DNA of 41,972 bases from Escherichia phage vB_EcoS_fTaEco03 (MT711528.1); one strand, 5' to 3'; positions 13,075-36,568 are shown, counted from the first letter of the stretch. Notes: generated by a model not told the origin, from the sequence alone. Numbers and translations: made by a program.

Positions 13075-13089
13075 TGTTGGTGTAAGTGA

Positions 13090-13118
13090 ATAGTACCCTA
13101 TTATATTGGGGTGTGCAA
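13090..13118 (-). promoter_or_regulatory. Promoter family member (TTGCAC - 17 - TACTAT) with AATAG-N4-CTATT inverted repeat
   Basis: Minus strand reads CTTGCACACCCCAATATAATAGGGTACTATTCAC, near-identical to 35245-35278 on plus strand. Confidence 0.5.
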
Positions 13119-13226
13119 GTAATGTGATAGAATAAGTTTGCGCCTAGTGTCGCACACGAAAAGCGGGTGGTTCCCGTCTGGCGCATTTATCGTTAACCTG
13201 TAACCTCTTAACCAAAGGATTAAAGA

Positions 13227-13643
13227 ATGAAACTTTCTGATTTTTATTTCGAAGAGAAAGCACTGGTAGGCAAGAAGATGCCCATTCTGCTGCCAAACGG
13301 CGAAGACTCCGGTGAATGGCTTAACGTTGTAAGTCCCGATGCGGATGTCGCCGTTAAAGCGGGGCGTGCTTTCATTATTGCGTACCGTCGCGGGTTGGCG
13401 CGTTTCGAAGAACTGGAAAAAGCCGCCAAAGAATCCGGCGACTATACTGAATATAACCTGGCTATTAACGAACTGGCGGAAGACCTCAACCGGCAACTCG
13501 CGGCAGAAGTCGTAAACGGCTGGAGCTTTGATGAGCCTTTCTCTAAAGAAGCATTTAACAAATTGCTGGACCAGTTCAAGGCATTAGGCACACAGGTAGC
13601 AGCGTTCCATAACGCTGAGCGCAAAGCATTACAGGAAAAGTAG
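13227..13643 (+). CDS. Tail assembly chaperone (gpG-like)
   Basis: 138 aa acidic protein directly upstream of tape measure; AAGGA RBS; ends GAA AAG TAG at slippery run. Confidence 0.55.
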   Translation: MKLSDFYFEEKALVGKKMPILLPNGEDSGEWLNVVSPDADVAVKAGRAFIIAYRRGLARFEELEKAAKESGDYTEYNLAINELAEDLNRQLAAEVVNGWSFDEPFSKEAFNKLLDQFKALGTQVAAFHNAERKALQEK

Positions 13644-14008
13644 ACGCGCTGTACAGGTTCGCCACCTATGAGTTTGTGGATAAGCATAAAATCAGAGAGT
13701 TTGATTCTATAGCCGACGGACACGAACAGGCGCTTATCGCGATGGGTGTAATCGATAAGAAAAAACGTGCAGCGCGACGGGGTGGGCCAGAATGCCCGCC
13801 CCTTTTTATATCCACCTTCGAGACGTACTGCGACATTAAGTTTACGCGACACGTGCGCGAGGACGCTGTAGTATTGTTCGCAAGAGAATCCGTTACGTGG
13901 CAAGACCTGAAAGCCTATCTCGATGTTACGCAAAAACAGCTTAGCCTGTTCGAGATAGACATTATCATGGGCTTAGAAGCAATCTTTGAAGGTAGAAATC
14001 ATGGCTGA
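13619..14008 (+). CDS. Tail assembly chaperone frameshift extension (gpGT-like C-terminal part)
   Basis: Open -1 frame overlapping end of 13227-13643 and running to tape measure start; no good independent start. Confidence 0.45.
   Translation, partial: AQSITGKVDALYRFATYEFVDKHKIREFDSIADGHEQALIAMGVIDKKKRAARRGGPECPPLFISTFETYCDIKFTRHVREDAVVLFARESVTWQDLKAYLDVTQKQLSLFEIDIIMGLEAIFEGRNHG
13634..13640 (+). other. Putative -1 programmed ribosomal frameshift site (GGAAAAG)
   Basis: A AAG lysine codon just before TAG; the -1 frame is open from 13619 to 14008. Confidence 0.45.
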
Positions 14009-16274
14009 TACCGCTAGCTTGATCGTACGAGTATCATCGACCGGCGTCGATAAAACCACATCACAACTGAACGGGCTTACCAAAGCCGCGGGGGCCGCCG
14101 CCGCTGCCGTTGTCAGTCTGGAAACTGCCAAACAGGTGTTCAGTGCGCTGGTGGACTCCCAGCGCAACTTCGATAAGCTGAACTCCGGCCTCATCACAAT
14201 GACCGGGAGCGCTGAGAACGCGGCTAAGGCTTTCAGCGTCCTGCAACAGTTCGCAAAAGAAACCCCATATGGCCTTAACCAGGCGGTGGAAGGCTTTACT
14301 AAGCTGGTTGCCCTCGGCCTGAACCCAAGCAAAGAGGCGTTAATCTCCTACGGCAACACCGCGGCGGCTATGGGTAAAGACCTTAATCAGATGATTGAGG
14401 CGGTTGCCGACGCCAGTACCTTTGAGTTTGAGCGACTGAAAGAGTTCGGTATCAAGTCTTCCCAACAGGCGGATACCGTTTCGTTCACGTTTCGCGGCGT
14501 AACGACCACGGTTAAAAAGAACTCCGAAGAGATTCAGAAATACCTGCTGAACATAGGCAACACCGATTTCGCCGGAGCGATGGAGACGCGCTCGAAGACC
14601 TTAGACGGTCAGTTATCCAGCCTGGCGGACTCCTTCGACGGCCTTGTTCTTGCGGTAGCGCAATCCGGTTTTGGTGACGCCGTAGGTGAGCAAGCCGCGA
14701 GAGCGGAAGATGCTATCACGGCACTCACCGACGCCATAGCGTCTAATGAGATAGCAGCCACGCTCCAGGATTGGGTGACACTGTTCAATGAATCGTTCAA
14801 GTTTATTTCTGATGCCCTGAATGACCTGGCATACGACACCGAGGACAAATCCGTTGATATGTCAGACTCGCTGGGGGCTATACCTGATGCTATCCGTGAG
14901 TGGTTGCCTGACATTCAGCAGACATTCCACGAGGTTATTGCGTGGTTCCAGCGCATTGACGATTACGCTGTAGCGTTAGGTCAGACCCTTGCTGATGTGT
15001 TTGACCCGAGCAAAACGGCAGCGCTCACATTTAAAAACCTGACCGCAGAGGCTGACGCCGCATACGCCGCCAGCATAAAACGCGCAGCGGCGGAATCCCA
15101 GGCCATTACCGACAGGTCTAAGCAGCGTAAGAAAGAAATTGAGGAACAGCGCAAGCAGTATGACGAGCGCAAGAAGCAAGAAATTGACTTAGCCAGCCTT
15201 GTTAATAAAAAGGGTGGAACTGGCGGCACCGGAAACGCCGACGATAAAGCGGCAAAAGCAGCCGCTAAGAAAGCTGAGCAGTTGCGGAATCAGGCGCAAG
15301 ACTACCTCGACACTTTGGCCCGTCAGAACAACGACGAGTTAAAGGCTATTGACGCGCAGGAACAGCAGAAACTGGCTAAAGCAAAAGAGTTCTACAGCCA
15401 GGGTGCGTTGTCTCTGAAAGAATACGAACAAGCTAAAACAGCTATCGTCCTCGAAGCCGGACAAAAACGACAAGATGAACTGGATAAACGCCAGAAAGAA
15501 GCCCAGGAAAAGCAACAGAAAGGCGACGACTTCATGGCTCAGATTATGGGCCAGAACGCTACTGAGCTTGAGCTTCTCGACATCCAGGAACAGCAGAAAC
15601 TGGCGGTAGCCGATAAGTACCGTGAACAGGGTCTGATTAGCGAGAAGCAGTATCAGGCCGCGCTTAACGCCATCAACGAGCAGTATGCTATGAAGCGCGC
15701 CGACGCAACGGCGACCGCCTTTGGTAATATGGCCTCAAACATTGGGTCTGCGTTGGGCGAGGCTTCAGGTGCGTATAAGGCATTCGCTATCGTACAGGCC
15801 ACTATAGCCACGTACACCGCAGCTATTGAAGCGTATAAGTCAACGGCTGCTATCCCTGTAGTCGGCCCGTTCCTGGCTCCTGTAGCTGCCGCCGCTGCCG
15901 TTGGGGCAGGTATGGCGCAGATTTCCGCTATCAGGTCCGCGCGTGAACAGGGGGGACAGTTATCCGCAGGGCAGGCTTCCACCATCGCAGAACGCGGTAA
16001 ACCAGAAGTCATCATGCCTGCTGGCGCATCTCGTGTTCGCACCGCGCAGCAGATGAAAGAAATTATGGGGCAAAACGGGTCTTCTTCCGGACCGTCTAAT
16101 GTTACCATCGTAAACAACACGAGTTCTCAGATTGGCAACGTATCCACTGAACAAGATGATGAAGGCCGTTTGCGTATCATCATTGAAGAGCAAGTGGCGG
16201 CCTCTTTGCAGAACAGCAACAGTAAGATTAGCAAGGCCCGCAAGGCCACAAGAAACGCGCCGGGGTTCAAATAA
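14001..16274 (+). CDS. Tail tape measure protein
   Basis: ~757 aa, alanine/coiled-coil-rich, after chaperone pair and before distal tail genes; start refined to ATG 14001 (RBS GAAGGTAG). Confidence 0.8.
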   Translation: MADTASLIVRVSSTGVDKTTSQLNGLTKAAGAAAAAVVSLETAKQVFSALVDSQRNFDKLNSGLITMTGSAENAAKAFSVLQQFAKETPYGLNQAVEGFTKLVALGLNPSKEALISYGNTAAAMGKDLNQMIEAVADASTFEFERLKEFGIKSSQQADTVSFTFRGVTTTVKKNSEEIQKYLLNIGNTDFAGAMETRSKTLDGQLSSLADSFDGLVLAVAQSGFGDAVGEQAARAEDAITALTDAIASNEIAATLQDWVTLFNESFKFISDALNDLAYDTEDKSVDMSDSLGAIPDAIREWLPDIQQTFHEVIAWFQRIDDYAVALGQTLADVFDPSKTAALTFKNLTAEADAAYAASIKRAAAESQAITDRSKQRKKEIEEQRKQYDERKKQEIDLASLVNKKGGTGGTGNADDKAAKAAAKKAEQLRNQAQDYLDTLARQNNDELKAIDAQEQQKLAKAKEFYSQGALSLKEYEQAKTAIVLEAGQKRQDELDKRQKEAQEKQQKGDDFMAQIMGQNATELELLDIQEQQKLAVADKYREQGLISEKQYQAALNAINEQYAMKRADATATAFGNMASNIGSALGEASGAYKAFAIVQATIATYTAAIEAYKSTAAIPVVGPFLAPVAAAAAVGAGMAQISAIRSAREQGGQLSAGQASTIAERGKPEVIMPAGASRVRTAQQMKEIMGQNGSSSGPSNVTIVNNTSSQIGNVSTEQDDEGRLRIIIEEQVAASLQNSNSKISKARKATRNAPGFK

Positions 16275-16774
16275 TGAGCGACTTATATTTCCCACGTAGC
16301 CTTAAGCCAATTGTATCGAAAGGCTACTCAATGACCAGACGTAACAACGTCTGGAGTGTAGATTTAGCTGGTGGTGGTGTACGTCAGGGGCGCGACACGT
16401 ATTACGACGTGTTCCCGATAAGCGTAACCCTGCTCACATCGGCGCTGGGGCGGCAAGCGTTTCTGTCGTTCCTTGAGAAAGTAGATGGCGGTGCGTCAAG
16501 TTTCTGGATGGCGCACGACTTCGGCATGGGTATTGAGGATTATCAGGTAACCATTACGTCCACTATCGCCGAGTCCACCGAAGACGGGATTAACTGGACA
16601 ATCACCTTCACGGCAACCGCTGAGAAATCGCCGTTCCAGGACCTTGAGAACCAGTGCCTTGTTAACAATCTGCCGGATTTGTATGGTTGTTACGGGGACT
16701 GTCTGGGTAGTTTCCTTAAAGCCTACGGAACCGCGCAATCAACGTTTCCACGAATTTGGGACCCGATGCAATGA
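16274..16774 (+). CDS. Distal tail / minor tail protein
   Basis: 166 aa; ATGA overlap with tape measure stop. Confidence 0.5.
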   Translation: MSDLYFPRSLKPIVSKGYSMTRRNNVWSVDLAGGGVRQGRDTYYDVFPISVTLLTSALGRQAFLSFLEKVDGGASSFWMAHDFGMGIEDYQVTITSTIAESTEDGINWTITFTATAEKSPFQDLENQCLVNNLPDLYGCYGDCLGSFLKAYGTAQSTFPRIWDPMQ

Positions 16775-17286
16775 GTCAGGAATCAGTAGAAGCTGCCTAT
16801 CGCCGTAAGTTGGCATCAAATCCAGACGGCGAGATGGACTACATCACGTTGCAAATCAGCCACCCGTTGCTGTCGAAGACGTACTATCTTGTGCGCGGGC
16901 TGCAGGAACTTACGGCGACACTGGAAACCGGCGAAACTATCACATTCGAACCCACCCCGATGGAAGCGTCGGGGGCCGCTAACAACAGTGATATGGACCA
17001 GACTACCACGTTTACTCTACCGGATATTATCAATCAACTGGATGATGAGATGGATAAAATCCCGATGAGTAACACCGAGTTGCCGAAATTCGTCTTCCGC
17101 CGTTATGTCAGTACCGACCTGTCTTATCCGGCGGACGGCCCGGTCGTGTACGAGTTACAGGCTATCAACCAGGAGAAAGGCGAGTTCTCCGCAGATGTCG
17201 GTACACCTATGCTGAACCAACGGAGCACTGGTATACTGATGACACCTAAAGAGATACCGTTATTGCGCGGCCTGTTGACCACATGA
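16771..17286 (+). CDS. Minor tail protein
   Basis: Start refined to ATG 16771 overlapping previous TGA. Confidence 0.5.
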   Translation: MSQESVEAAYRRKLASNPDGEMDYITLQISHPLLSKTYYLVRGLQELTATLETGETITFEPTPMEASGAANNSDMDQTTTFTLPDIINQLDDEMDKIPMSNTELPKFVFRRYVSTDLSYPADGPVVYELQAINQEKGEFSADVGTPMLNQRSTGILMTPKEIPLLRGLLTT

Positions 17287-17648
17287 ATATTAACGACTAC
17301 ACGGGAATACCTTACGACTTTCGCAAACGTAATTGCTGGCACCATGTGCGCATTGTCCGCGCGGATGCCGGGTTAGAAACCCCGGCGTTCGACGTTACAA
17401 GCCCAACGGCAATTAACGACGCGTTTGACGAAGGCCACCGCAACACGAAGGGGCTTACGAAAATTGATAAGCCTGAAAACTTCTGTGCGGTGCTTATGGG
17501 GTATCGCCGAGGCGGTCGTATTGTGTGGCACGCGGGAGTTTACTTCGACGGGATGGTTAGCCATTGCGAGCTTGCCTCACGTCAAGTACGGCTTGACAGG
17601 CTGGCGGACCTCAGAGACACGTACACGGAGATTGAATTTTGGCGATAA
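17283..17648 (+). CDS. Tail assembly protein (small, Cys/His-containing)
   Basis: 121 aa; overlapping stop/start with neighbours. Confidence 0.45.
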   Translation: MNINDYTGIPYDFRKRNCWHHVRIVRADAGLETPAFDVTSPTAINDAFDEGHRNTKGLTKIDKPENFCAVLMGYRRGGRIVWHAGVYFDGMVSHCELASRQVRLDRLADLRDTYTEIEFWR

Positions 17649-20152
17649 TCCTGCACTACACGCGAAACGCTGATGGCGCTTTCGACCGTACAAAACACGT
17701 CGGGATGCCGATGGAGTTTGTCGTTAACCGTATCCCGGACGGCGTGCCAGTGCGCGTCTACCTCGGCGAAATTGGTGATGATACCGACGTAACTGACGAC
17801 TTCGACGCACTCAAAGACGAATACGCCGTGTACCACATTATAGAGGGTGCTGGTAGCGGGGCGCTTGGTGCTGTTAGTAAGGTGTTCGGTTTTATCCTTA
17901 AGCCAATCGCTAAGTTGTTTGGTCTGAACATGTCCGCAAACGCCAACTATACGGCGACTAACAACCAGACAACATCTCCAAATAATAGCCTCACAGACCG
18001 CTCAAACAAACCACGCCCTTACGAGCGCTCCTATGACATCTGCGGGACTGTGCAGACAATCCCTAATGACCTGATGCAGACGTATAAGGCGTTCAACTCC
18101 ACTGGTGCTTTGCTGGAGTATTCGTACTATGACGCAGGGCGCGGACATCTGCATATTGAGGCTGATGGCGTCACAGAGGGCGACACCCTGATAAGCGACA
18201 TCACAGGTTCCTCTGTTGCCGTATACGCGCCGTATACGTCACCGAACAACACCACATCGCCGCAACTACAAATCGGCGACGTCATCGACCAGAAACTCTA
18301 TGTGACGTACTCTAACGACGACGTTGACGGTATTGTACTGAAAGCGCCAAACGACATTGGAGCTAACCCAAGCGCCGACGGCACAGCTAAACGTATTTCA
18401 AACACCGGCTACATTTATGACCCGTCAGGGGACTCTGCTTTTTCTGAGTTTCTTAGCGTCGGGGATGTCGCGGTTCTGAGCAACTTCGACGTTGCCGATG
18501 TGACTAACCTGAATGGTTCGTTTGAGGTTTTATACGTTGACGACTTCGAAGTGAGATTAGCCGTAAACGGCGCGTCTAACTGGGCAGCGTTGACCAGCGG
18601 GCAAACGTACGCCCTAACAGAGCGTTCAGATACGTTTATCGGCCCGAGCGACACCTATGACGTATCCCTTACAGACTGGTATTACATGGTGCGCGGAGAA
18701 GTTGACCGGGTGCTTGCTAACGTCGCGGGGCAGAACGGCCTCTACAAATACGACGGCGGCTATAACCGCACCAGCGTAACCGTAGAACTCCAGTACCAGA
18801 TGATTGACTCTCGGCGCAACCCATTGAGCGATATTTACACAGTACAGGCTACAATTACCGGTAATAGCACGGATTACGTCGGTACGTCTATCTACGGGCA
18901 ATTGCCTACTGCATCGCGTTTCCGCGCCCGTATGCGCCGTATAACGAATTTTGATAAGGACTACAACGGTACAGTAAGCGACGAGATAACCTTCATCAAC
19001 CTGTACGGGCAGTCGCTGGACACAACCCCACACTACGGCAACCGAACTACCGTGCATTGCGCACGTAAACAGACGCCGCGTGCCGCCAGTATCGACAACC
19101 CAGAACTGCGCATGATTGCGACCGAGATGTGCTACAAATATCTGGGTAATGGGGTATTCGACCCAGTAATGACGCCTAATACACAGGCGGTGCAGTCGCT
19201 AATCAGACTGGCGCGTGACCCGGCGGTTGGTAATCTGGAGCTGACAACGGCAAACATGGACAAGTTACTCGCCGTGCAGGAAGAGATTGAATCTTATTTT
19301 GGCAGCGAATTAGCCGGGCAATTCTGCTACACGTTCGACGACTACGACACGACGATGCAGGACATTGTTCAGACCATAGCTGAAGCCGTGTTCTGTACTG
19401 CGTACCGTAAAGGCGCGGACATTATGCTGCGTTTCGACCGTCCGGTTGCAGGGCCTGAAATGGTGTTCACCCACCGTAGTAAGACGACCGGTACGGAGAA
19501 ATGGACCCGCACGTTCAACGATTCTACGACCTACGATAGCCTGTCGTTCTCGTACATCGACCCGGATACGAACGTACAGGAAACGATTTATATCCCGGAA
19601 GAACTCGGTGCAAACACTGAGGAGTACGAATCGAAGGGCGTGCGCAACTATCAGCAGGCGTACTGGCTGGCATGGCGTCGCTACCAGCGCAATGCGTTAA
19701 GTAAAGTTGTCGTAGAGTTCGAAGCTACCGAAGAGGGGGCACTCGCTACACCTGGCGGCGTAATCAGCGTGGTTAAAGGCTCACGCATCGCGCCGCAGGA
19801 TGGTTATGTTGTTGCCGTTAACGGGCTTACGCTTACGCTGTCTCAGCCAGTTACGTTTACCCCCGGAGACGACCACTCCATCATCCTCAAGAAGCGCGAT
19901 GGCTCTGTGCAGAGTATCTCGGTTATCAAAGGAAGCCACGACCGCGAGGTGATTATGCTCTCCGCGCCGGAAGAAGCAATCTACACGGGGAATAGCGCGC
20001 TAAAAACTGAGTTTTCATTCGGCAACGAAGCAAGGCATAATGCTCAGAAGATAGTTGTTTCTTCAATCGACCCGGGCGACGACCGCACGGTCAAGATTAC
20101 TGGCTACAACTATGACGACGGATTCTATAAATACGACGGCGTCGCGCCATAA
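17639..20152 (+). CDS. Tail tip / central tail fibre protein (gpJ-like)
   Basis: 837 aa ORF after small tail genes; track start is TTG 17639 (GGAG 8 nt upstream); alternative ATG 17705. Confidence 0.55.
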   Translation: MAIILHYTRNADGAFDRTKHVGMPMEFVVNRIPDGVPVRVYLGEIGDDTDVTDDFDALKDEYAVYHIIEGAGSGALGAVSKVFGFILKPIAKLFGLNMSANANYTATNNQTTSPNNSLTDRSNKPRPYERSYDICGTVQTIPNDLMQTYKAFNSTGALLEYSYYDAGRGHLHIEADGVTEGDTLISDITGSSVAVYAPYTSPNNTTSPQLQIGDVIDQKLYVTYSNDDVDGIVLKAPNDIGANPSADGTAKRISNTGYIYDPSGDSAFSEFLSVGDVAVLSNFDVADVTNLNGSFEVLYVDDFEVRLAVNGASNWAALTSGQTYALTERSDTFIGPSDTYDVSLTDWYYMVRGEVDRVLANVAGQNGLYKYDGGYNRTSVTVELQYQMIDSRRNPLSDIYTVQATITGNSTDYVGTSIYGQLPTASRFRARMRRITNFDKDYNGTVSDEITFINLYGQSLDTTPHYGNRTTVHCARKQTPRAASIDNPELRMIATEMCYKYLGNGVFDPVMTPNTQAVQSLIRLARDPAVGNLELTTANMDKLLAVQEEIESYFGSELAGQFCYTFDDYDTTMQDIVQTIAEAVFCTAYRKGADIMLRFDRPVAGPEMVFTHRSKTTGTEKWTRTFNDSTTYDSLSFSYIDPDTNVQETIYIPEELGANTEEYESKGVRNYQQAYWLAWRRYQRNALSKVVVEFEATEEGALATPGGVISVVKGSRIAPQDGYVVAVNGLTLTLSQPVTFTPGDDHSIILKKRDGSVQSISVIKGSHDREVIMLSAPEEAIYTGNSALKTEFSFGNEARHNAQKIVVSSIDPGDDRTVKITGYNYDDGFYKYDGVAP

Positions 20153-20206
20153 GGCAGCGGTTTCTCCGATGGATTCAGCAATGGTTTTAATTAAAGAGGA
20201 CTCTAT

Positions 20207-23161: not shown

Positions 23162-23165
23162 AACT

Positions 23166-23187
23166 AAGGCCCCAAACGGGGCCTTTT
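23166..23187. terminator. Bidirectional terminator between tailspike and minus-strand replication operon
   Basis: aaggccccAAACggggcctt followed by T-run; near-identical to hairpin at 10640. Confidence 0.7.
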
Positions 23188-23189
23188 CT

Positions 23190-24748: not shown

Positions 24749-25535
24749 TTACGGCCCCCATAAACGCCTTTATAAATTCGGCGGCTACTTGCGGGACGAT
24801 GGCATTGCCGTAACCGCGCAATCGTCCCACTCTGGCGGGTACCCCATTAGCCAGCGGGAATGTGCTGGGTTCAACTGGCCTGAATTTCCCATCCCGGCAT
24901 CCGAGCCAGTCAGCATCTGACCAGAACCCGTTAGGCGGATTGGCTGTGCCAGAGATGCCTCTGTTTGCAGATTGTGGCCCCCGTTCCTGCCCTGATGGCC
25001 TGCTCCCGCCGAGTTGTTCGCACACGGTGTTGGCCAGTTGCTGCGCTCCGAAGAACAATCGATTCCTTTTGTGCGGTGCGCCGACGCTACAAGCTGGGAG
25101 TACGGCAAACCCGACGGCGTAGTCTTCTCTTTCCAGGTGAGTTTGTAAATCGCACATCCACGATTTTGCAATTGCTGCCGCAACCTGCTCCCCAAAGATA
25201 ACTGGAGGGCGGCACTCGCTGATGAGGTCGAGGAACACAGGTGCGAGGTGTCTCTGGTCGAACTGTCCGAGTTGCTTTCCTGCCGTGCTAAACGGTTGGC
25301 AAGGCGGGCTTCCCGTCCAGAGAGGCGCATCTTCCGGAACTCCCGAAAGTCTGAGCGCGAGAGGCCAGCCGCCGATACCAGCGAAAAAATGACACTGGGT
25401 GAACCCGTCAAGGTCTTCTGGTCTAACTTCGGTAATGCTTCTTTCATCTACAACTCCAAAAGGTATGTGACCCTGTTTTATTAATTCACGCAGCCACGCG
25501 GCTGCGCCTTTATCCCATTCGTTGTAATAGTTCAT
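24741..25535 (-). CDS. DNA (cytosine-5) methyltransferase, short form
   Basis: 264 aa; motif I FAGIGG, motif IV PPCQPFS, motif VIII KRNRLFF, motif X GNAIVP. Confidence 0.7.
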
Positions 25536-25723
25536 TTCGCCACCAGAACCAGTTCCTTACGCCCGAACGCCGTAACGTTTCCTGTTACATCTTCGATAAC
25601 CAGTTTACCGTTCGACTCGACGAACACCGTATCAACGGCAACAGGGTGGCGGGTCTTAACGTTGAAAATCATATCGCCAGGTACGATGTCACGTGCTGGT
25701 TTACGGTCATATTCGTGTTTCAT
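25532..25723 (-). CDS. Hypothetical protein (63 aa)
   Basis: First ORF downstream of minus-strand promoter 25757-25785; ATGA overlap with methyltransferase. Confidence 0.45.
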   Translation of the reverse strand: MKHEYDRKPARDIVPGDMIFNVKTRHPVAVDTVFVESNGKLVIEDVTGNVTAFGRKELVLVAK

Positions 25724-25753
25724 TTCTCAATTCCTTATATTGTTGGTGTGTGA

Positions 25754-26038
25754 TTAACTATAATAGCTCGCTATTAGGTCGTCAACCTGTTTAAACGAAC
25801 CAACGATAAAAACATTTGCACCGCGTTTACGCATCCGCTCGTGCTCACGTATCTGGTGCGGGTCTGGCTTCGTGTTTTCGTCTTTCTTAACCTCGACGAA
25901 CCATATGACGCCGCCAGGGAGAATTACCAGCAGGTCGGGAGCGCCGGAGCGCCCCTCGTAGGAGAGCTTACGAACGAGGCCGCCGATGGCCTCGAATCGC
26001 TCTTTTGCGTATTTCTGTATTTTGCCTTCCGGTGTCAT
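25754..26038 (-). CDS. VRR-NUC-like PD-(D/E)xK nuclease
   Basis: ~94 aa from ATG 26038 (track began at TTG 26053); motif PDLLVILPGG...VEVKK. Confidence 0.5.
   Translation of the reverse strand: MTPEGKIQKYAKERFEAIGGLVRKLSYEGRSGAPDLLVILPGGVIWFVEVKKDENTKPDPHQIREHERMRKRGANVFIVGSFKQVDDLIASYYS
25757..25785 (-). promoter_or_regulatory. Promoter family member (TTGACG - 17 - TATAGT) with AATAG-N4-CTATT inverted repeat
   Basis: Minus strand reads TTGACGACCTAATAGCGAGCTATTATAGT. Confidence 0.55.
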
Positions 26039-26187
26039 GAGCGCGGAATCCAAGTAAGGAAAGCCCCGCCTAGAACGGCAACGCCAACAAACTTAAAGAA
26101 CAGGCCGTAACAGAACATCGCGGCTATTCCCGCACCGAGTAACAGCGCGAGCATGGTTACTATCGTCCAAAATACAAACATTGTCAT
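26035..26187 (-). CDS. Small hydrophobic membrane protein (50 aa)
   Basis: GAGGGG RBS; hydrophobic throughout; stop overlaps next ATG (ATGA); below ORF-track size cutoff. Confidence 0.3.
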   Translation of the reverse strand: MTMFVFWTIVTMLALLLGAGIAAMFCYGLFFKFVGVAVLGGAFLTWIPRS

Positions 26188-26269
26188 AATACGCACCCCT
26201 CACGTTTCGTATGTTCAATACCACAGCGCGGGCAGATTCGACAGTCTTCTTCATAAAACCAGTAAATTT

Positions 26270-28571: not shown

Positions 28572-28587
28572 TATTTTTGACCCTTAG

Positions 28588-28611
28588 TAAAAAGGCCCAA
28601 TGAAGGGCCTT
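28588..28611 (-). terminator. Intra-operon terminator/attenuator between SSB-like gene and DNA polymerase
   Basis: Minus strand AAGGCCC-TTCATT-GGGCCTT followed by TTTTTACT. Confidence 0.45.
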
Positions 28612-28630
28612 AGTTAAATTGATTCAGATA

Positions 28631-29257
28631 TTAGCGACGACGACGCTCGCGGCGCGGTGATTCATCTTCTTCGTCGTCTTCCAGGTCATTTACGCTGGCA
28701 GCGACTTTAGAACCGCCAAACGCTTTGCCTTCGCCAATGTATTTAATCGCCAGCAGGTTAACGCCGAGGACTTTATATTTCTGACTGAACCAGATTTCAA
28801 CGCTTACGTTAGCGACGCAGCCGCTGTAAACCTGTTCACCTTCAATCTGTTCGCCGTCTACATTGAAGTCCTGTTCTACCTGAGTCTCGCCTTTTTTAGA
28901 GGTTACAATCAGTGGCTGTTTCTGTGCCTTCGCCTTGAAGTAGAAGCCTTCCGGGAAGTCTTCAAACGGATTGTCGCGCTCGGCAATGTCTTTAATCGCA
29001 CATTTATCCATGTGCTTACCTTCGCCGTAGTTGGACTTCATCCACTTCTCAGCGGCAGCTGCGCCCAACGCTTCTTCAACCACAGCGTAAACGGTGTCGT
29101 AGAGCGCGTCGATTTGTGCGTGGTCAGACGGCAGGATGATAGTCGCGCTGTACTGGCCTTTAGTGATTGAGCCATCATCGTTTTCACGGTCTTTTTCGCG
29201 TTCGAATACGTTAACCCATGCAGTGTTTACTTTACGCAGATTCAGTTTAATACCCAT
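28631..29257 (-). CDS. Single-strand DNA-binding / annealing protein (putative)
   Basis: 208 aa with acidic C-terminal tail DDEEDE then RRERRRR; located beside nuclease and polymerase. Confidence 0.45.
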   Translation of the reverse strand: MGIKLNLRKVNTAWVNVFEREKDRENDDGSITKGQYSATIILPSDHAQIDALYDTVYAVVEEALGAAAAEKWMKSNYGEGKHMDKCAIKDIAERDNPFEDFPEGFYFKAKAQKQPLIVTSKKGETQVEQDFNVDGEQIEGEQVYSGCVANVSVEIWFSQKYKVLGVNLLAIKYIGEGKAFGGSKVAASVNDLEDDEEDESPRRERRRR

Positions 29258-29310
29258 CGTGATTTCTCGCTTTTCAGTTTACTCCGGGAACTGCCCGGCC
29301 AGTGATTAGA

Positions 29311-29339
29311 ACTATAATAGCTAACTATTCGGGTGTCAA
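29311..29339 (-). promoter_or_regulatory. Promoter family member (TTGACA - 17 - TATAGT) with AATAG-N4-CTATT inverted repeat
   Basis: Minus strand reads TTGACACCCGAATAGTTAGCTATTATAGT. Confidence 0.55.
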
Positions 29340-29343
29340 CACT

Positions 29344-30866: not shown

Positions 30867-31120
30867 TGGTCAATTAAATGTCGTGTCTTATGGTCGCAGT
30901 GCATAGCCCAGCTGTACATCGACTCAAAGACATAAAAGTCAGGCTTGGCGAATGTCGTGCGCTTAATCTGCGACACGTGACGGCCTATATCTTTAGACAG
31001 CGGTACTTTGCCTAAGTACGCCATCTCTTCCATCTGGTGTGCACCGGACGGCGCACGCAATAACCATAGCGCCTCTGTGGTATCCCGCCGGTCAACGGCG
31101 CGGTATAGTTGGTAAATCAT
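30848..31120 (-). CDS. Hypothetical protein (90 aa)
   Basis: ORF in early minus-strand operon; no recognisable motif. Confidence 0.4.
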   Translation of the reverse strand: MIYQLYRAVDRRDTTEALWLLRAPSGAHQMEEMAYLGKVPLSKDIGRHVSQIKRTTFAKPDFYVFESMYSWAMHCDHKTRHLIDQWESRV

Positions 31121-31163
31121 AATCCCGACCCTCAGTTAAAGCGGCCCGAAGGCCGCGGGATAG

Positions 31164-31634
31164 TTATTCTTCTTCGAAATACTTGTTCTTGATTGCTGTC
31201 AGGCGCTCCAGATACTCAGCCAGGTCTTCGTCTTTAATCGCTGCAATCTTCATCTTCTTACCGGTAAACTCTTCCAGCAGTTCGTCAGAATCGTCGCACG
31301 CGGCATCGCTTGGGCCTTCGTTAATCGCATCGTCGATAGCCTGAATCTGGTCGCGCAGAGACTGGTAATCGACTTCTTCTTTCTCTTCTTCCGGCTCTGG
31401 CGTTGGCTCCTCTACTTTAGCTTTACGCGGCTTGCGCTTCGGCTTCTCTTCTTCTGCTGGTTTAGTGTCAATGGTGTCTTCACCTTCTACCGGGATTTCT
31501 TTCGTTACTTCTTTCACAACAGTAGGCTCTATTGTTGCAGTTTTGGCAACGACAACTTGTTTCGCACTGTTTGCAGCAATCAGTTCGTGGGCGACTACGA
31601 AACGTTCCAGTAATACCAAGAATTTCTCTAACAT
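31164..31634 (-). CDS. Highly acidic early protein, hypothetical
   Basis: 156 aa, first gene after promoter 31666-31694; long E/D-rich tracts (EEPTPEPEEEKEEVD, DDSDELLEE). Confidence 0.5.
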   Translation of the reverse strand: MLEKFLVLLERFVVAHELIAANSAKQVVVAKTATIEPTVVKEVTKEIPVEGEDTIDTKPAEEEKPKRKPRKAKVEEPTPEPEEEKEEVDYQSLRDQIQAIDDAINEGPSDAACDDSDELLEEFTGKKMKIAAIKDEDLAEYLERLTAIKNKYFEEE

Positions 31635-31665
31635 TTGTTTCTCTCCTCTCGTTTGGTATGGGCTA

Positions 31666-31694
31666 ACTATAATAGCGAACTATTCACTTGTCAA
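31666..31694 (-). promoter_or_regulatory. Promoter family member (TTGACA - 17 - TATAGT) with AATAG-N4-CTATT inverted repeat
   Basis: Minus strand reads TTGACAAGTGAATAGTTCGCTATTATAGT; divergent from HTH regulator gene. Confidence 0.6.
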
Positions 31695-31758
31695 TGGGCT
31701 TTTCTAAAATAATTAATATGGTACTATTCACATATCAACTGACTAAGGAGTAATTGGC

Positions 31759-31974
31759 ATGCAACCATCTGAACTAGGTATCCGTGTAGAGCAACGCCGT
31801 AAAGAACTCGGTATCTCCCAGCGCCATCTGGCTGTCCTGGCCGGTGTTTCCCAAGGCGCAATTAACCAGCTTGCACTCGGTGTAACTCAGGACGTCCGCC
31901 CGGCGACGCTGTTTAAACTGGCGGAAGTGCTTGAAGTAGACGCCAAGTGGCTGGCGTTCGGTGAAGGGGCTTAA
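31759..31974 (+). CDS. XRE/Cro-type helix-turn-helix transcriptional regulator
   Basis: 71 aa; HTH segment ISQRHLAVLAGVSQGAINQL; AAGGAG RBS; followed by terminator. Confidence 0.7.
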   Translation: MQPSELGIRVEQRRKELGISQRHLAVLAGVSQGAINQLALGVTQDVRPATLFKLAEVLEVDAKWLAFGEGA

Positions 31975-31989
31975 CGCCCCTTTCTTTTT
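31965..31989 (+). terminator. Rho-independent terminator after HTH regulator gene
   Basis: ggggcTTAACgcccc + TTTCTTTTT; stop codon lies in loop. Confidence 0.65.
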
Positions 31990-31991
31990 AC

Positions 31992-34253
31992 CTATTCCAA
32001 ATCCTCCTCTGTCACTGTCAGCATTTCATTCGGTTCGTATATTGTCTTAGGAATTTTGTTGTCGTTTATACCCCACGGCAGCCGGTACTGCTTAGGTATG
32101 GGCCTGTTGTTGTTATCCAGACCCGAGACGATAATCCCGGCCTCATGCATCTCTTCCAGTTTCTTTCGAAGGTCGTTATTAGCGTTAATCGGTACGCCGT
32201 AACTATCTTCTTTCGCCGCTTTGACGATAGCGGACATAGAAAACCCGCGCTTGTCGTCACCCTGCTCCTGCAATTTACCCAATGCGTAAATAACCGTAGC
32301 CTCTTTGGAATCCAGTTTCTCGAACTGGCCTACCTTTTCTTTAACGGCTTCCTTCTGTTCGTCGGTCATACCTTCTACTTTCTTCACGAAGACAGAGAAG
32401 GCGTTGAAGTTGACAAAGACATCAATATGCGGATTTCCCGCGTCAAAATCGCGCACATCGTCGCTACTGTACCCTTCTGGAAGACCCATGAAGTTGTGAG
32501 TTGGTTCTTTCTTTTCTGGTGGTTCCGCTATCTGAATCTTCTGTATTACGAATCCTCTGGCTTTCTGCCGTTCTCCGTTTCGGTTCTTTATGTGGTACAG
32601 GTTTATCTCTAAGTTGTTATCGTTGTCCGGTTTATGCAGAAACATCCCGTTATCGATGGAGTTGTGAAAATCACTACCACCTTTCGGCATCATGCCGTTC
32701 TCGGATGGTACGGTTTCGTCGATGTTTTTAGTCGGGTGCACCATAGCGCCTACCGCAGCGTTAAGCGTCGACGCTATTTCGTTAAGCGCCTGCGCCGCTT
32801 CTTTCATCGACCTGTTGTCGTTCTCGTCGAAGCCCGGTATGCAAGTTTGTAGAGTATCAAACGTAACCTTTACAATTTTCTCTTCACCGGCAACACGGCG
32901 CATCATTCTCACCGCCTGGCGGCGCCACGCCTCATCAAGTAAATTACACCCATCGGCGACACAATCGATAATGTGCAAGCGGTCCAGGCTATCCCCGAGG
33001 GCAATCTGCAAAGACTTTTTATGTCGCTCGAACGACTGCGCACCTTCACCCGCAAAAATGAACGCATGTCCTTCTGCGACCTCAGCCCCGCCGAACGCAT
33101 ATCTTTTTTCAGCGGCAATAGCGGCGTCAATCGCCATACTAAATGTTGACTTACCAGTGTGGGACTTTGCGCAAATGTAGAACGATTCGTTGGTCTGCAT
33201 AAGGCCGTCTACTACGGGGTAAGCAGGTTCTTTTTCTACTTCCGGCTCGTCTTCAAGGTCTTCCAGCGTGCAAGTTACAGGCTCTTCGTTCTCTGTGCGG
33301 TGCAATTCCTCAATCTCTTCGTCCGGTAAATCCGGCAAAGCCGCACGAATGCTGTTAATACTGATAGGTTGCTTGTCTACGTTAAGCTCGTCGGGCAGGC
33401 CGCACATACGCAAGGCCAAATGTTGCCGACGGTTAAGCTCGGTACAAGCGCCGTTGTTTGTGTGCTGGCACACGAAGCGCACCTCTTTACCGTCAAGCAT
33501 GATGCTGGTGGAGCCTTTGCCTGTATGCAGATGTTCATTAGGGCATGGCACTTCATACCCTCGGCCGGAAGATAAAGCGTCAAGGCCCAGCTCGGCTTCG
33601 CAGAAATGAGCTATATCTGCGTTAAGCCCGTGCTCATCGGCGGCAAGTGTCTTAGCCTCGCGTTTACGCAGCCCCATCTCTTCGGCTTTCTTGATGTACC
33701 GCTCCGCACGGATAACACGCCCTTCTGTAACCGTTATCTTAGACTCTTTATGCGGCAGGTAGATGAGGCGGTTGCCGTCTTCCGTGCAGTGGTCGCGCAG
33801 CGATTCATCTATTTCTAACTCGGCACAAATAGCACGTTGCACCATCCACGCGTCGTTAGAGTTAAACGGCGTGCGAGCTGGAACCAGAACGCGGAAAGCG
33901 TAGTCACCGTTTTTACACGCGTGCTGGTGCGATGCCGTTGTATGCAGGATATTGAAGAACGGCGCGTTCTTGAATTTGCGTGTCAGGTCGCGGTACTGAG
34001 TACGGCTGAGATGGTCAAAGTCGAACTTAACCACACTGTCTTCCAGAATCGCATTCTTACGGCGACCGCCAACAGGAGCAATAGCCTTCTGTTTAATCTT
34101 GGCCGCGTCGTACTCTTCCTTAGTCCACGACGGGTCCACGGATAAACGCTTCGATGTATCACAGACATACTCCACAAACTGCTCCAGCGGCATTTCACGC
34201 GCTACAGGGTTTTTATCGAATGTATTGCGCAGCGTTGCAAAAACAATATTCAT
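31992..34253 (-). CDS. DNA primase / replicative helicase (P-loop NTPase)
   Basis: 753 aa; Walker A AKSHTGKST in central region; large N-terminal domain; position in replication module. Confidence 0.65.
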   Translation of the reverse strand: MNIVFATLRNTFDKNPVAREMPLEQFVEYVCDTSKRLSVDPSWTKEEYDAAKIKQKAIAPVGGRRKNAILEDSVVKFDFDHLSRTQYRDLTRKFKNAPFFNILHTTASHQHACKNGDYAFRVLVPARTPFNSNDAWMVQRAICAELEIDESLRDHCTEDGNRLIYLPHKESKITVTEGRVIRAERYIKKAEEMGLRKREAKTLAADEHGLNADIAHFCEAELGLDALSSGRGYEVPCPNEHLHTGKGSTSIMLDGKEVRFVCQHTNNGACTELNRRQHLALRMCGLPDELNVDKQPISINSIRAALPDLPDEEIEELHRTENEEPVTCTLEDLEDEPEVEKEPAYPVVDGLMQTNESFYICAKSHTGKSTFSMAIDAAIAAEKRYAFGGAEVAEGHAFIFAGEGAQSFERHKKSLQIALGDSLDRLHIIDCVADGCNLLDEAWRRQAVRMMRRVAGEEKIVKVTFDTLQTCIPGFDENDNRSMKEAAQALNEIASTLNAAVGAMVHPTKNIDETVPSENGMMPKGGSDFHNSIDNGMFLHKPDNDNNLEINLYHIKNRNGERQKARGFVIQKIQIAEPPEKKEPTHNFMGLPEGYSSDDVRDFDAGNPHIDVFVNFNAFSVFVKKVEGMTDEQKEAVKEKVGQFEKLDSKEATVIYALGKLQEQGDDKRGFSMSAIVKAAKEDSYGVPINANNDLRKKLEEMHEAGIIVSGLDNNNRPIPKQYRLPWGINDNKIPKTIYEPNEMLTVTEEDLE

Positions 34254-34378
34254 TTCTTTTTCTCCGCACGTTCTAAGGCTTCCTGCATACGGCGCATTGC
34301 GCGGTTCATCTTTACTGGTGCGAAGAAATCAGCGCCGTGTTTCTGGCGGCGTAGCTGTGGAACTATTAACTTCGTCAT
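34250..34378 (-). CDS. Small basic protein (42 aa), hypothetical
   Basis: AAGGA RBS; stop overlaps primase ATG (ATGA); below ORF-track cutoff. Confidence 0.3.
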   Translation of the reverse strand: MTKLIVPQLRRQKHGADFFAPVKMNRAMRRMQEALERAEKKK

Positions 34379-34428
34379 TGTATAATCCTTGTGCTTACTT
34401 TGATGATTTATGCTTCGGCCCCGACGTT

Positions 34429-34662
34429 CTAGCGTTGGGGTTTCTTTTGTCTACGCACCGCATTAACCCACTCTCCTTCGCTACGGTAAAAACTGCAATC
34501 AAGGATATCCTCTATAGAAAATTTAACTATTTTAGTGGGTCCACAAAAGTTATAAGGGAAAAGTTCTACATAACACCCATCGTCGGTTATATTTGACGCA
34601 ATCTTGAAATAATATTTAATGCTGCCGTCTTCGCGGAAGCTACAACCCATACGCCCAATCAT
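34429..34662 (-). CDS. Hypothetical protein (77 aa)
   Basis: ORF between AlpA-like gene and primase; ATGA overlap upstream. Confidence 0.4.
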   Translation of the reverse strand: MIGRMGCSFREDGSIKYYFKIASNITDDGCYVELFPYNFCGPTKIVKFSIEDILDCSFYRSEGEWVNAVRRQKKPQR

Positions 34663-34841
34663 TTCACGTTCTCCTTAATCCATGCTTCAACTTTATTACG
34701 GTCGAATGTTCCTGGTAAACGGCGACCCATAACCTTAATACAACAATCCGGGAATTTACCACTGCGTAACCAGTTATTAATTGTCTGACGTGTCACCCCA
34801 ATACGCTCGGCTACTTCATTCTGGGTCATGTAATGTTGCAT
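34659..34841 (-). CDS. AlpA-like HTH DNA-binding protein
   Basis: Start refined to ATG 34841 (AGGAG RBS); sequence VAERIGVTRQTINNWLRSGKFP resembles AlpA/Xis-type HTH. Confidence 0.55.
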   Translation of the reverse strand: MQHYMTQNEVAERIGVTRQTINNWLRSGKFPDCCIKVMGRRLPGTFDRNKVEAWIKENVK

Positions 34842-34872
34842 TTTTAAATCTCCTGTTTGTTTGGTGAAGCCA

Positions 34873-34901
34873 AGTATAGGATAGCGGGAATGTAAAAGCA
34901 A
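34873..34901 (-). promoter_or_regulatory. Promoter for leftward early operon (TTGCTT - 17 - TATACT)
   Basis: Read on minus strand upstream of AlpA-like gene. Confidence 0.5.
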
Positions 34902-34948
34902 CCAAAACACCACACAAAGTTACTAAGATACAAAAGATGCTACTAGTA

Positions 34949-34977
34949 TTGACTTTTACTAAGAAATATGGTAAGCT
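34949..34977 (+). promoter_or_regulatory. Sigma70-like promoter (TTGACT - 17 - TGgTAAGCT), twin of 4420-4448
   Basis: Same -35, spacer length and extended -10 as promoter at 4420. Confidence 0.55.
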
Positions 34978-34980
34978 CAG

Positions 34981-35018
34981 CCTGAGCTTGTGAAGTATGA
35001 ACAAGCGACCGCGGCGCG
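34981..35018 (+). promoter_or_regulatory. Conserved 38-nt promoter-proximal leader element, copy 2
   Basis: Identical 38-mer to 4452-4489; downstream blocks TCTATTG and TTACTGA also shared. Confidence 0.6.
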
Positions 35019-35163
35019 CGGCAGGCGAAACGAGCACGTGTAACGTGTGGAGTGAGGCTCGCTGGCGCGTTTGGGAGGCCCAAAGTCTATTGTAATTCCC
35101 GCCTAATTATCTAAGTTACTGATTTGCCGTAGGTTAGAACCGCCAGCTCACTCACTCACTCTT

Positions 35164-35178
35164 GGTGCCTTCGGCACC
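35164..35178 (+). other. Stable hairpin GGTGCC-TTCG-GCACC in leader
   Basis: Perfect 5-6 bp stem with TTCG tetraloop, preceded by (CTCA)n at 35147-35161. Confidence 0.4.
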
Positions 35179-35245
35179 ACGTTCGTTTCGTTTCGCTCGC
35201 TACCCCCTTAAACGAAAGAATCACAACGGCAACGTAACTAATCTC

Positions 35246-35274
35246 TTGCACACCCCAACATAATAGGATACTAT
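35246..35274 (+). promoter_or_regulatory. Promoter family member (TTGCAC - 17 - TACTAT) with AATAG-N4-CTATT inverted repeat
   Basis: CTTGCACACCCCAACATAATAGGATACTATTCAC upstream of gene 35309. Confidence 0.55.
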
Positions 35275-35308
35275 TCACTTATCGAAACGAGACAGAGGAG
35301 TGAGGGTT

Positions 35309-35500
35309 ATGTTTAAACGTGGTCAGTTGGTTAAATGCGCCGACGATAAACACGGCGTAATTGAATTAAAATCTGCTTTATTTCCAGGAAAGTACGTAGT
35401 TACCGTGCAAAATGTGAGAGGAGTAAATTCACAAATATACGTAGCGGAGGAGAACTTAAAACTCATCGGCAACAATTTTAAATTTAAAGGGGTGAAGTGA
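35309..35500 (+). CDS. Early protein, hypothetical (63 aa)
   Basis: ATG 35309 with GAGGAG RBS; ATGA overlap with next gene. Confidence 0.5.
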   Translation: MFKRGQLVKCADDKHGVIELKSALFPGKYVVTVQNVRGVNSQIYVAEENLKLIGNNFKFKGVK

Positions 35501-35700
35501 TGGAAGAATTATTTGAAGAACTGAAACATCATGATTTCGAGGAAATATATTTCGTAGCTGAACGCTACGAGGTGCATCTGGCGGACGGTATAACGGTTAT
35601 TACATCTACCAGCGAGCGAATGTTAAATAGCTTACGAGCAATACGAACGGCATCGAATCATGATGCTTGTGCCGACGACTCTGAGGGAGGTTGCCGTTAA
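35497..35700 (+). CDS. Early protein, hypothetical (67 aa)
   Basis: Translationally coupled chain of small ORFs. Confidence 0.45.
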   Translation: MMEELFEELKHHDFEEIYFVAERYEVHLADGITVITSTSERMLNSLRAIRTASNHDACADDSEGGCR

Positions 35701-35879
35701 TGCGAATCCGTATAACTGACCGCAGGCTTATCCGTATAACTGACCGCAGGCTTATAGATTTCTGTATCTCGGTAGGTGATGTTTTTCCGGCGTTCAGCAT
35801 CAACCATTATGGTTTTATGATTGAGTACAAAGGGTCGTTATTGTTCGTGTATCGGGATGAATGTGAGGTTCTGGTATGA
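35700..35879 (+). CDS. Small ORF containing 24-bp tandem repeat (repeated RITDRRLI peptide)
   Basis: ATG overlaps previous TAA; spans direct repeats 35706-35753. Confidence 0.3.
   Translation: MRIRITDRRLIRITDRRLIDFCISVGDVFPAFSINHYGFMIEYKGSLLFVYRDECEVLV
35706..35753. repeat. Perfect 24-bp tandem direct repeat x2 (ATCCGTATAACTGACCGCAGGCTT)
   Basis: Two identical adjacent copies read directly. Confidence 0.85.
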
Positions 35880-36028
35880 GAGAAGCATTTGAACGGTGGG
35901 CTGTGGTCGAGGGTCTGCCGGTTAACAAGGGTTCAAAGAAAGAGTACCTGAACGTTAAGACGCGTCTCGCGTGGCGGGCGTGGAAAGCTGGTGTGCAATC
36001 CTTGATTGAAAGAGGTGTGAGGTATGGG
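35876..36028 (+). CDS. Early protein, hypothetical (50 aa)
   Basis: ATGA overlap upstream; stop overlaps next ATG. Confidence 0.35.
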
Positions 36029-36224
36029 TGAGTGGATTAAGTGTAGTGAGATGCTGCCGGGTAATGGGTATACGGATAAAGAGTTCCTGGTGTATGAAAC
36101 GTTAAATAACGCAGTTCAGCACGATTATTACATAGTTCCTGATGACGGGAGAAAGCCTTTCTGGAATCACTACGATAAGTACGTGACGCACTGGATGCCG
36201 TTACCCGAGCCGCCAGAAGTGTGA
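36024..36224 (+). CDS. DUF551-like protein
   Basis: 66 aa ending VTHWMPLPEPPEV, the signature recalled for DUF551 phage proteins. Confidence 0.55.
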   Translation: MGEWIKCSEMLPGNGYTDKEFLVYETLNNAVQHDYYIVPDDGRKPFWNHYDKYVTHWMPLPEPPEV

Positions 36225-36358
36225 TGTTCAATAGTTTGGGATTTTACTGAGTGACTTACGCTGCTACACAGCAGCGTACAACTTTAACTTAGTGTCGTCA
36301 AAAGGCGACACTTTCATCAAACGCAACAATCGAAGCGACTATTGCAGGAGATGCAACA

Positions 36359-36532
36359 ATGATTACTAAAGAACAGGCTGAACGACTAATCACGTTAATC
36401 GACACGATGGTTGATGCTAAAACCGATTTAGCAACGGCGACAGAGGAATCCGCTACCTGGTCGCTTGAAGAAAGAGAGGCAGAAGCGGAAAGGGAGTTAC
36501 AGGCATTCATCGACTCCATAACACACCAATAA
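36359..36532 (+). CDS. Small acidic protein (57 aa), hypothetical
   Basis: GGAG RBS 8 nt upstream; below ORF-track cutoff. Confidence 0.35.
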   Translation: MITKEQAERLITLIDTMVDAKTDLATATEESATWSLEEREAEAERELQAFIDSITHQ

Positions 36533-36539
36533 AATTTAC

Positions 36540-36568
36540 TTGCACACTAAGATAGAATAGGCTACTAT
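36540..36568 (+). promoter_or_regulatory. Promoter family member (TTGCAC - 17 - TACTAT) with AATAG-N4-CTATT inverted repeat
   Basis: ACTTGCACACTAAGATAGAATAGGCTACTATTCAT. Confidence 0.5.

Follow-up and report, generated by a model that had tools for sequence, protein, structure and literature searches.

Why a single short inverted repeat (IR) should recur at many promoters is the question raised by the genome of Escherichia phage vB_EcoS_fTaEco03 (MT711528.1). The stretch analysed, referred to as the window, comprises 41,972 bp and is a near-complete genome of a Kagunavirus (Guernseyvirinae), an apparently lytic phage of E. coli K1. The original prediction, made from this sequence alone, described a promoter family with an embedded AATAG-N4-CTATT repeat on both strands, and took it for a phage-specific promoter class with a built-in operator, possibly for an XRE-type helix-turn-helix (HTH) protein. 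Sequence comparison suggests that these sites are probably promoters for the host sigma-70 RNA polymerase, each carrying a 434-type operator for the phage's own Cro-like XRE protein.

The repeat (AATAGNNNNCTATT) is present in six exact copies, at 13089, 25762, 29316, 31671, 35262 and 36556, where only 0.01 is expected, and none of 100 shuffled sequences reached six. Allowing at most one mismatch gave 11 matches, compared to 1.04 expected. All six copies proposed originally were recovered at their positions, the degenerate seventh copy could be placed precisely (AATATGGTACTATT, 31715-31728), and additional weak sites with one mismatch were found at 2787, 4415, 34080 and 39504. In a de novo count of all palindromes with 5+5 arms and gaps of 0-10, AATAG-N4-CTATT ranked first in the window, in the close Escherichia phage relative vB_EcoS_fTaEco01 (MT711527; 97.6% identity over the 8 kb tested) and in phage Jersey (NC_021777). 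Five of the six exact copies are located outside genes, the exception being 25762, which falls within the final codons of the VRR-NUC gene (25754-26053, minus strand). All six point toward an adjacent gene, at strand switches or after terminators.

The reading of a -35 hexamer, a 17-bp spacer and a -10 hexamer held for all six copies, and hexamer pairs 16-18 bp apart, oriented at the first gene of a transcription unit, are what is expected of sigma-70 promoters. Two architectures can be distinguished. Class A promoters (25762, 29316 and 31671, all on the minus strand) have the form TTGACR-N4-AATAG-N4-CTATT-ATAGTT, in which the palindrome fills the spacer, from about -25 to -12, and overlaps the -10 hexamer TATAGT only with its last T. 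In a scan of the region 22-42 kb, in which sigma-70 consensus matches were scored out of 12, these three were the best matches (Table 1). Class B promoters (13089 on the minus strand, 35262 and 36556 on the plus strand, and the degenerate 31715) have the form CTTGCACAC-N8-AATAGG-N-TACTATTCAYTTA, with the right arm inside the -10 hexamer TACTAT and the palindrome spanning about -19 to -6. Their hexamers, TTGCAC-17-TACTAT, score 7/12 by hand count and were not called by the scan, and they are conserved in relatives. The proposed overlap of the repeat with the -10 therefore applies to class B, and in class A the palindrome lies in the spacer. A third register is found in the Jersey orthologue of 13089, which reads TTGCAT-N7-IR with a -10 of TATTAT. 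As three registers relative to the -35 occur, the palindrome is separable from the promoter core. The hairpin that the arms could form has a stability of just -1.5 to -3.7 kcal/mol; a role as RNA or DNA hairpin was rejected, since folding is too weak and the class A arms lie upstream of the predicted transcription start.

Conservation was analysed in three phage genomes, Jersey, the Cornellvirus VSiP and Serratia phage Tsm2, and in 73 IMG/VR loci selected for encoding a homologue of the XRE protein. AATAG-N4-CTATT is the top-ranked palindrome in every Kagunavirus and Jerseyvirus locus, and is missing from Cornellvirus and from all unrelated contigs in this locus set. Jersey has four exact copies (0.01 expected) and Tsm2 has two (0.00 expected), at orthologous promoters; in Tsm2 they belong to a class A promoter that precedes the SSB-like gene and to one of class B. 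In a test anchored on genes rather than on the motif, in which sites with at most one mismatch were sought within 130 nt upstream, a site was found before the SSB-like gene in 34 of 34 Kagunavirus and Jerseyvirus loci (30 of them exact), and likewise before the XRE gene in all 34. By comparison, about 2.6% of random 130-nt windows from the window genome, these sites included, contain such a site. The arms are fixed over about 35 genomes, and the central N4 has 12 different forms in Kagunavirus class A sites alone. The repeat follows the -35 at a distance of 4 or 5 nt in class A and of 10-11 nt in class B, with 7 nt for the site at Jersey 16957, and the position of the palindrome relative to the -10 also differs between sites. 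Fixed arms around a variable centre are most simply read as the footprint of a dimeric DNA-binding protein. The conservation of the arms at orthologous promoters thus upholds the notion of a promoter family with a built-in operator, albeit in two host-type (sigma-70) architectures and not as a special promoter class.

It could be argued that there is no operator at all, and that the repeat arose incidentally as promoter cassettes were duplicated, an AT-rich palindrome kept only for its -10-like hexamers. The right arm does overlap or abut the -10 in every copy, and the class B copies resemble duplicated cassettes in sharing long identical stretches (CTTGCACAC..ATAATAGGnTACTATTCAYTTA) as well as a common leader and ribosome-binding site (RBS). 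However, the class A left arm falls within the spacer, whose bases sigma-70 does not read, and before the SSB-like gene it is still invariant in all 34 loci while its neighbours vary; since it has no promoter role, it needs another reader. Moreover, the same palindrome occurs in the three registers mentioned above, and at the SSB-like promoter of Cornellvirus the promoter-constrained right arm persists whereas the free left arm has changed, to ATTAT. We therefore consider a mere by-product unlikely.

The clearest candidate for a reader of the repeat is the XRE protein, one of two HTH proteins encoded in the window (XRE/HTH_3, Pfam 2e-11; HTH_17, at 34659-34841 on the minus strand, Pfam 1.6e-8). 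Its gene is flanked by the exact copy at 31671 and the degenerate copy at 31715, which is the usual layout for an autoregulated repressor. The closest solved relative by sequence is Cro of phage 434, to which it aligns from end to end (E 5.5e-7; both proteins have 71 residues). The AlphaFold model (pLDDT 78) consists of five helices and has its best structural match in the PDB with 2cro (TM 0.72/0.78), and 1zug, 1pra and 3cro, representing 434 Cro and 434 repressor, are also among the best matches (TM 0.72-0.78). The recognition-helix Gln aligned to Gln28 of 434 Cro and the 'RP' loop are both kept. The base read by Gln28 of 434 Cro is the adenine at position 1 of its operator, and AATAG likewise begins with an A. 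Roughly 500 phage records carry the XRE protein. In unrelated phages, homologues with 38-45% identity adjoin repeated 5-N4-5 palindromes: in three small contigs TAAAG-N4-CTTTA is found at -99 and -53 of the homologous gene, and in another contig TGTAG-N4-CTACA occurs three times around it.

The sites share several properties with the OR and OL operators of 434 Cro and cI, which are 14 bp long, with contacts to the outer 5+5 bases and none to the inner four (PMC1636474). In both systems the site is two-fold symmetric with conserved outer arms and four free central positions, and it overlaps elements of the promoter. The XRE protein is homologous to 434 Cro over its whole length, and its gene likewise adjoins its own putative sites. 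The half-sites differ, AATAG here and ACAA(T/G) in 434, as does the arrangement: here at least six promoters spread over 24 kb have one site each, whereas 434 has two clusters of three adjacent cooperative sites. Operators clustered in threes were not found in the window; two sites occur together in the XRE region alone, where their starts are separated by 44 bp. A comparable relative is gp53 of the lambdoid Enterobacter phage CobraSix, which is 39% identical to the XRE protein and occupies the cro position between the cI-like gp52 and the cII-like gp54. The cI-cro intergenic region of this phage contains three 14-bp ACAG-N6-CTGT palindromes (ACAGTTAAAACTGT, ACAGAAATAACTGT and ACAGATAAAACTGT); in contrast to the present phage, CobraSix is temperate and has a classical clustered operator region with another half-site.

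The base flanking each arm is the one systematic difference between the genera. Jerseyvirus always has TAATAG...CTATTA; in Kagunavirus the left flank is G or T, and the right flank is A in class A and C in class B. The flanking base tracks the type of XRE protein and not the type of HTH_17. In Cornellvirus, where the XRE recognition helix reads VTQSAISHL, the orthologous promoters carry ATTAG/ATTAC-N4-(C/G)TAAT. The apparent co-variation of XRE helix and operator is supportive, not decisive.

We propose the following mechanism. Host sigma-70 RNA polymerase would read each promoter directly, class A being near consensus. Each promoter would contain one 14-bp two-fold symmetric operator, positioned between about -25 and -6, to which the 71-residue Cro-like protein would bind as a dimer, with one recognition helix per AATAG arm and no contacts to the 4 bp in the middle. 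With the spacer filled (class A) or the -10 covered (class B), a bound dimer should keep RNA polymerase off the promoter. The XRE protein would in this way exert negative control over at least six transcription units, of which the leftward ones would be three replication/recombination operons and the Imm/metallophosphoesterase/kinase (nucleotide-metabolism) operon, and the rightward ones two small-gene operons, the second probably including the lysis genes. Its own gene would be autoregulated through the weaker copy at 31715. Physical binding of the XRE protein to these sites and the repressive sign of its action are inferred from the above, and the circuit may work either as a late shut-off or as a feedback throttle.

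Several observations weigh against this mechanism. The class B promoters match the sigma-70 consensus poorly, and their activity might depend on some further component. The XRE proteins of Kagunavirus and Jerseyvirus are only about 51% identical and have different recognition helices (SQGAINQL versus SQSLITHL), and the core motif is the same in both. The variant motif of Cornellvirus is weak (two exact copies versus 0.12 expected), and the association of operator flank with XRE type is confounded by shared descent and amounts to only two or three independent events. Finally, the only transcriptome of a relative, phage K1B4, assigns the Imm, methyltransferase and DNA polymerase genes to the latest-peaking class (PMC12645636), which does not fit a simple scheme of early expression followed by shut-off, since these genes lie in operator-bearing operons. 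In that time course, samples extend to 120 min with a latent period of 30 min, and phage reads amount to at most 8.9% (PMC12645636). As a single infection cycle is not resolved, little weight was given to these data either way, and the early, middle and late classes of K1B4 should not be used for timing the operator promoters. The K1B4 paper gives classes at gene level only, its supplements contain host annotation only, and leftover drafting notes are present in its text (PMC12645636).

A different phage protein as the ligand appears improbable. The candidates are the 60-residue HTH_17 protein (excisionase/AlpA-like), or a small protein such as the 63-residue product of 25532-25723. HTH_17 is a recognised DNA-binding domain. 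The Kagunavirus and Jerseyvirus versions of the protein share 80% identity (70-100% across loci), and both genera have the motif; Cornellvirus, which is without the exact motif, does not have the protein. The 63-residue protein has the same pattern of presence and absence. A screen for genes present in Kagunavirus and Jerseyvirus and not in Cornellvirus, noisy because of overlapping frames, returned these two and a few small, unassigned open reading frames (ORFs). In K1B4 the HTH-domain gene _008, which we equate with HTH_17 from gene order, is among the four earliest genes (PMC12645636). However, Tsm2 has no HTH_17 homologue (best E 0.22, compared to 1.4e-42 for the Jersey control), and yet it has the motif at class A and class B promoters, so that HTH_17 is dispensable for the motif. 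The HTH_17 recognition helix moreover varies within Kagunavirus (TRQTINNW, TRRTLNNW, SPMTLNRW) with motif and flanks unchanged, and its own promoter region contains no motif copy. Small HTH_17/excisionase proteins usually bind direct repeats, not 14-bp palindromes. HTH_17 was therefore rejected as the binder, as Tsm2 keeps the motif without it and its helix variants do not track the motif. In the 63-residue protein, Pfam recognised no DNA-binding domain. The suggestion that the XRE protein could be the binder is accordingly the favoured inference, supported by its homology and fold, the flanking copies, the operator geometry, the palindromes next to its homologues and the dispensability of HTH_17.

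Equally doubtful is a host protein of the Enterobacterales that binds the palindrome and times or tunes the promoters. The motif is common to phages of E. coli, Salmonella and Serratia, which makes a conserved host factor conceivable. We know of no E. coli regulator with the consensus AATAG-N4-CTATT. Cornellvirus infects Salmonella just like Jerseyvirus, but has lost the consensus at orthologous promoters, implying that the host does not impose it, and the geometry of the sites fits the phage's own 434-Cro-like protein, whose gene has two copies beside it. That these are promoters for a phage-encoded RNA polymerase, as PHIRE output for phage fBC-Eco01 labels them ('Phage RNAP promoter' PP1-PP7; PMC9825357), is effectively refuted, as a domain scan found no RNA polymerase domain in ten of the largest ORFs of the window, none is annotated in fTaEco01 or Jersey, the paper itself offers no such gene, and the sites bear canonical sigma-70 hexamers at 17 bp.

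The proposed XRE regulon does not resemble a lysis-lysogeny switch. The annotation of the closely related fTaEco01 contains no integrase, no cI-type repressor and no peptidase-domain repressor, and no copy of the XRE/operator module was found as a prophage in 5,426 complete E. coli genomes; the system is therefore not a switch of this kind, and the phage is apparently strictly lytic. The divergent cI-type repressor, integrase and lysogeny module that characterise lambdoid immunity regions were not found; the gene divergent to the XRE gene encodes a 156-residue acidic protein without Pfam domain. The only match to the module in those genomes was a CRISPR spacer of 32 nt, 100% identical to 31691-31722 in the XRE promoter region, on the chromosome of E. 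coli 2017.09.02CC (L079 402-433). Its array adjoins iap and was read as type I-E from the repeat GTGTTCCCCGCGCCAGCGGGGATAAACCG; this iap-side spacer is a trace of earlier immunity to this phage group. A more speculative scenario, put forward here quite tentatively, is that an obligately lytic siphovirus lineage descends from a temperate ancestor, of which it retained an orphan Cro, and that the single operator of this Cro came to occupy the majority of early and middle promoters of either strand, creating a genome-wide one-protein regulon that sets the temporal programme; at 13089, one operator may also underlie overlapping face-to-face promoters, and repression of the leftward early unit could then free rightward transcription of the tail genes.

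The repeat sequence as such is already published. In Kagunavirus fBC-Eco01 it was reported as a PHIRE repeat with consensus tgAATAGTa-ccTATTat-T in seven copies, termed phage-RNAP promoters (PMC9825357), and in VB_EcoS-Golestan as a PHIRE repeat of seven copies, including TAATAGGATACTATTCACTT and TTATAGTATGCTATTAACTT (PMC7203180). Both papers list 20-mers, and the palindrome, the sigma-70 hexamers, the two architectures and the link to an HTH protein go unremarked in them. In the Jersey record, three promoters resembling TTGACA(N15-18)TATAAT are annotated, at 29238-29266 (the orthologue of 25757-25785), 32925-32953 and 39893-39920. Each of them contains an exact AATAG-N4-CTATT, and the record treats them as plain host promoters with no operator recorded. 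A literature search on promoters and operators of Jersey-like phages and on Cro-like regulators of virulent phages yielded nothing usable and no experimental work on the regulator. What is less usual is that an apparently strictly lytic phage has single operators distributed among most of its non-structural promoters.

Phages of the Guernseyvirinae (Kagunavirus, Jerseyvirus) are widely isolated and have been proposed for therapy against K1 E. coli and Salmonella, and their transcriptional programme is uncharacterised. If the proposed mechanism is correct, one 71-residue protein and one 14-bp site would explain the co-regulation of most non-structural transcription units, and the published label of 'phage RNAP promoters' would be corrected. 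It would also represent a Cro-type regulator operating outside a lysis-lysogeny switch, and provide a small repressor and its operator as a portable pair, for which two promoter architectures are already available. No new class of mechanism would be opened; the circuit is a fairly ordinary one of gene control.

Table 1. Promoters, palindrome copies and the putative regulator gene in the window (scores are sigma-70 consensus matches out of 12)
Feature	Position	Strand	Sequence elements	Associated genes
Possible weak site TATAGTATGCTATT (uncertain)	2787-2800	+	just past terminator 2767-2782	upstream of head-morphogenesis gene
Class B promoter	13090-13118	-	-35 TTGCAC 13118-13113, 17-bp spacer, -10 TACTAT 13095-13090; IR 13089-13102 (AATAGTACCCTATT)	leftward Imm / metallophosphoesterase / kinase operon, 13074 down to 10664
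Class A promoter	25757-25785	-	TTGACG-17-TATAGT, 10/12; IR 25762-25775 in spacer	within 3' end of VRR-NUC gene; leftward operon 25723 down to 23324 (63-residue protein, methyltransferases, SNF2 helicase)
Class A promoter	29311-29339	-	TTGACA-17-TATAGT, 11/12; IR 29316-29329	SSB-like (Enc34 type) and DNA polymerase operon
Class A promoter	31666-31694	-	TTGACA-17-TATAGT, 11/12; IR 31671-31684	leftward operon 31634 down to 29344; divergent to XRE gene
Degenerate IR AATATGGTACTATT	31715-31728	+	1 mismatch	XRE gene's own promoter region
XRE/HTH_3 gene, 71 residues	31759-31974	+		434-Cro homologue, proposed operator-binding repressor
Class B promoter	35246-35274	+	TTGCAC-17-TACTAT; IR 35262-35275	rightward small-gene operon beginning near 35300-35310
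Class B promoter	36540-36568	+	TTGCAC-17-TACTAT; IR 36556-36569	rightward operon from 36600
Possible weak site ACTAGTTGACTATT (uncertain)	39504-39517	+	overlaps -35 of TTGACT(39509)-17-TATATT(39537)	ahead of small-gene/packaging block

Individual sites show some further characteristics. The operon starting at 36600 probably extends to the lysis genes, as the plus strand was found to have no strong terminator ahead of 39458-39487. The degenerate copy before the XRE gene either lies inside a -10 TACTAT (31722-31727) or follows closely on an alternative promoter, TTCACT-16-TAAAAT (31683-31710), and is kept with the same mismatch in the Kagunavirus loci covering the site. The 13089 site has its exact orthologous site in Jersey at 16957. 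Across the palindrome at 13089, TTGGTG-16-TATTAT is readable on the plus strand (13077-13104), aimed at the tail-gene block (13227 onward), for which no other promoter was found. This may represent a face-to-face promoter pair on one operator, or TTGGTG may merely be the complement of the leftward leader. A hypothetical ORF of 41 residues (13061-13186, minus strand; equivalent of TE1_020 in MT711527) spans this promoter and operator; it could not be expressed from the 13089 promoter and is probably a spurious gene call.

The sites with one mismatch are less clear. The centre and right arm of the 2787 site can be read as an extended -10 (TGcTATTAA), and its sequence was given as a PHIRE promoter before ORF3 in phage Golestan (PMC7203180). 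The 39504 site lies right after the terminator 39458-39487 and is conserved in Kagunavirus; its Jerseyvirus equivalent AATAGTTGACTAGT has the mismatch in the opposite arm. Both this site and the look-alike at 4415-4428 (AATAGTTGACTTTT) have one mismatch, and in both the centre is formed by the TTGA of the -35 hexamer TTGACT; they could be weak operators over the -35, or mere shared -35 context. No motif copy was found at the HTH_17/primase operon, nor at the promoters 34947, 39387 and 41336.

A conserved leader that ends in a strong RBS (..AAACGAGAGGAG.. or ..ACACCAACAAT..AAGG..) is present downstream of most palindrome promoters, at about 25725-25750, 31640-31660, 35280-35300 and 36575-36598, and likewise in relatives. 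Promoter, operator and RBS appear to have spread as a single cassette. Several Kagunavirus relatives contain an extra exact AATAG-N4-CTATT (L006 14663, L012 14750, L014 14567, L017 13351), located some 150 nt ahead of their counterpart of the 36556 promoter and without a recognisable -35; such a copy is absent from the window.

With regard to the genome as a whole, 451 related records were found, chiefly of Salmonella and Escherichia phages. According to the annotation of fTaEco01, the gene map comprises a rightward packaging/head/tail block, an endosialidase tailspike (in agreement with Pfam), several leftward replication/recombination operons, and rightward small-gene and lysis blocks. A search of Rfam returned nothing at gathering score across the whole window.

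Two other repeated elements were identified. The first is a two-copy element without a long ORF, at 4415-4650 and 34945-35180, both on the plus strand. It starts with a sigma-70-like promoter (TTGACTTTT..-17-TAAGCT), followed by about 55 nt that are identical except for one inserted base (CCTGAGCTTGTGAAGTATGAACAAGCGACCGCGGCGCG..GGCAGG), a divergent middle part in which several changes look compensatory, another conserved block and a hairpin resembling a terminator. Neither copy has a significant Rfam match, and the element is a candidate for a phage non-coding RNA of about 200 nt. The second is a GC-rich hairpin, AAGGCCCC-N4-GGGGCCTT, which occurs three times (10640-10659, 23166-23185 and 28592-28611) and is conserved in Jersey. 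The copies at 10640 and 23166 stand at meeting points of convergent transcription units, and the hairpin looks like a shared bidirectional terminator cassette.

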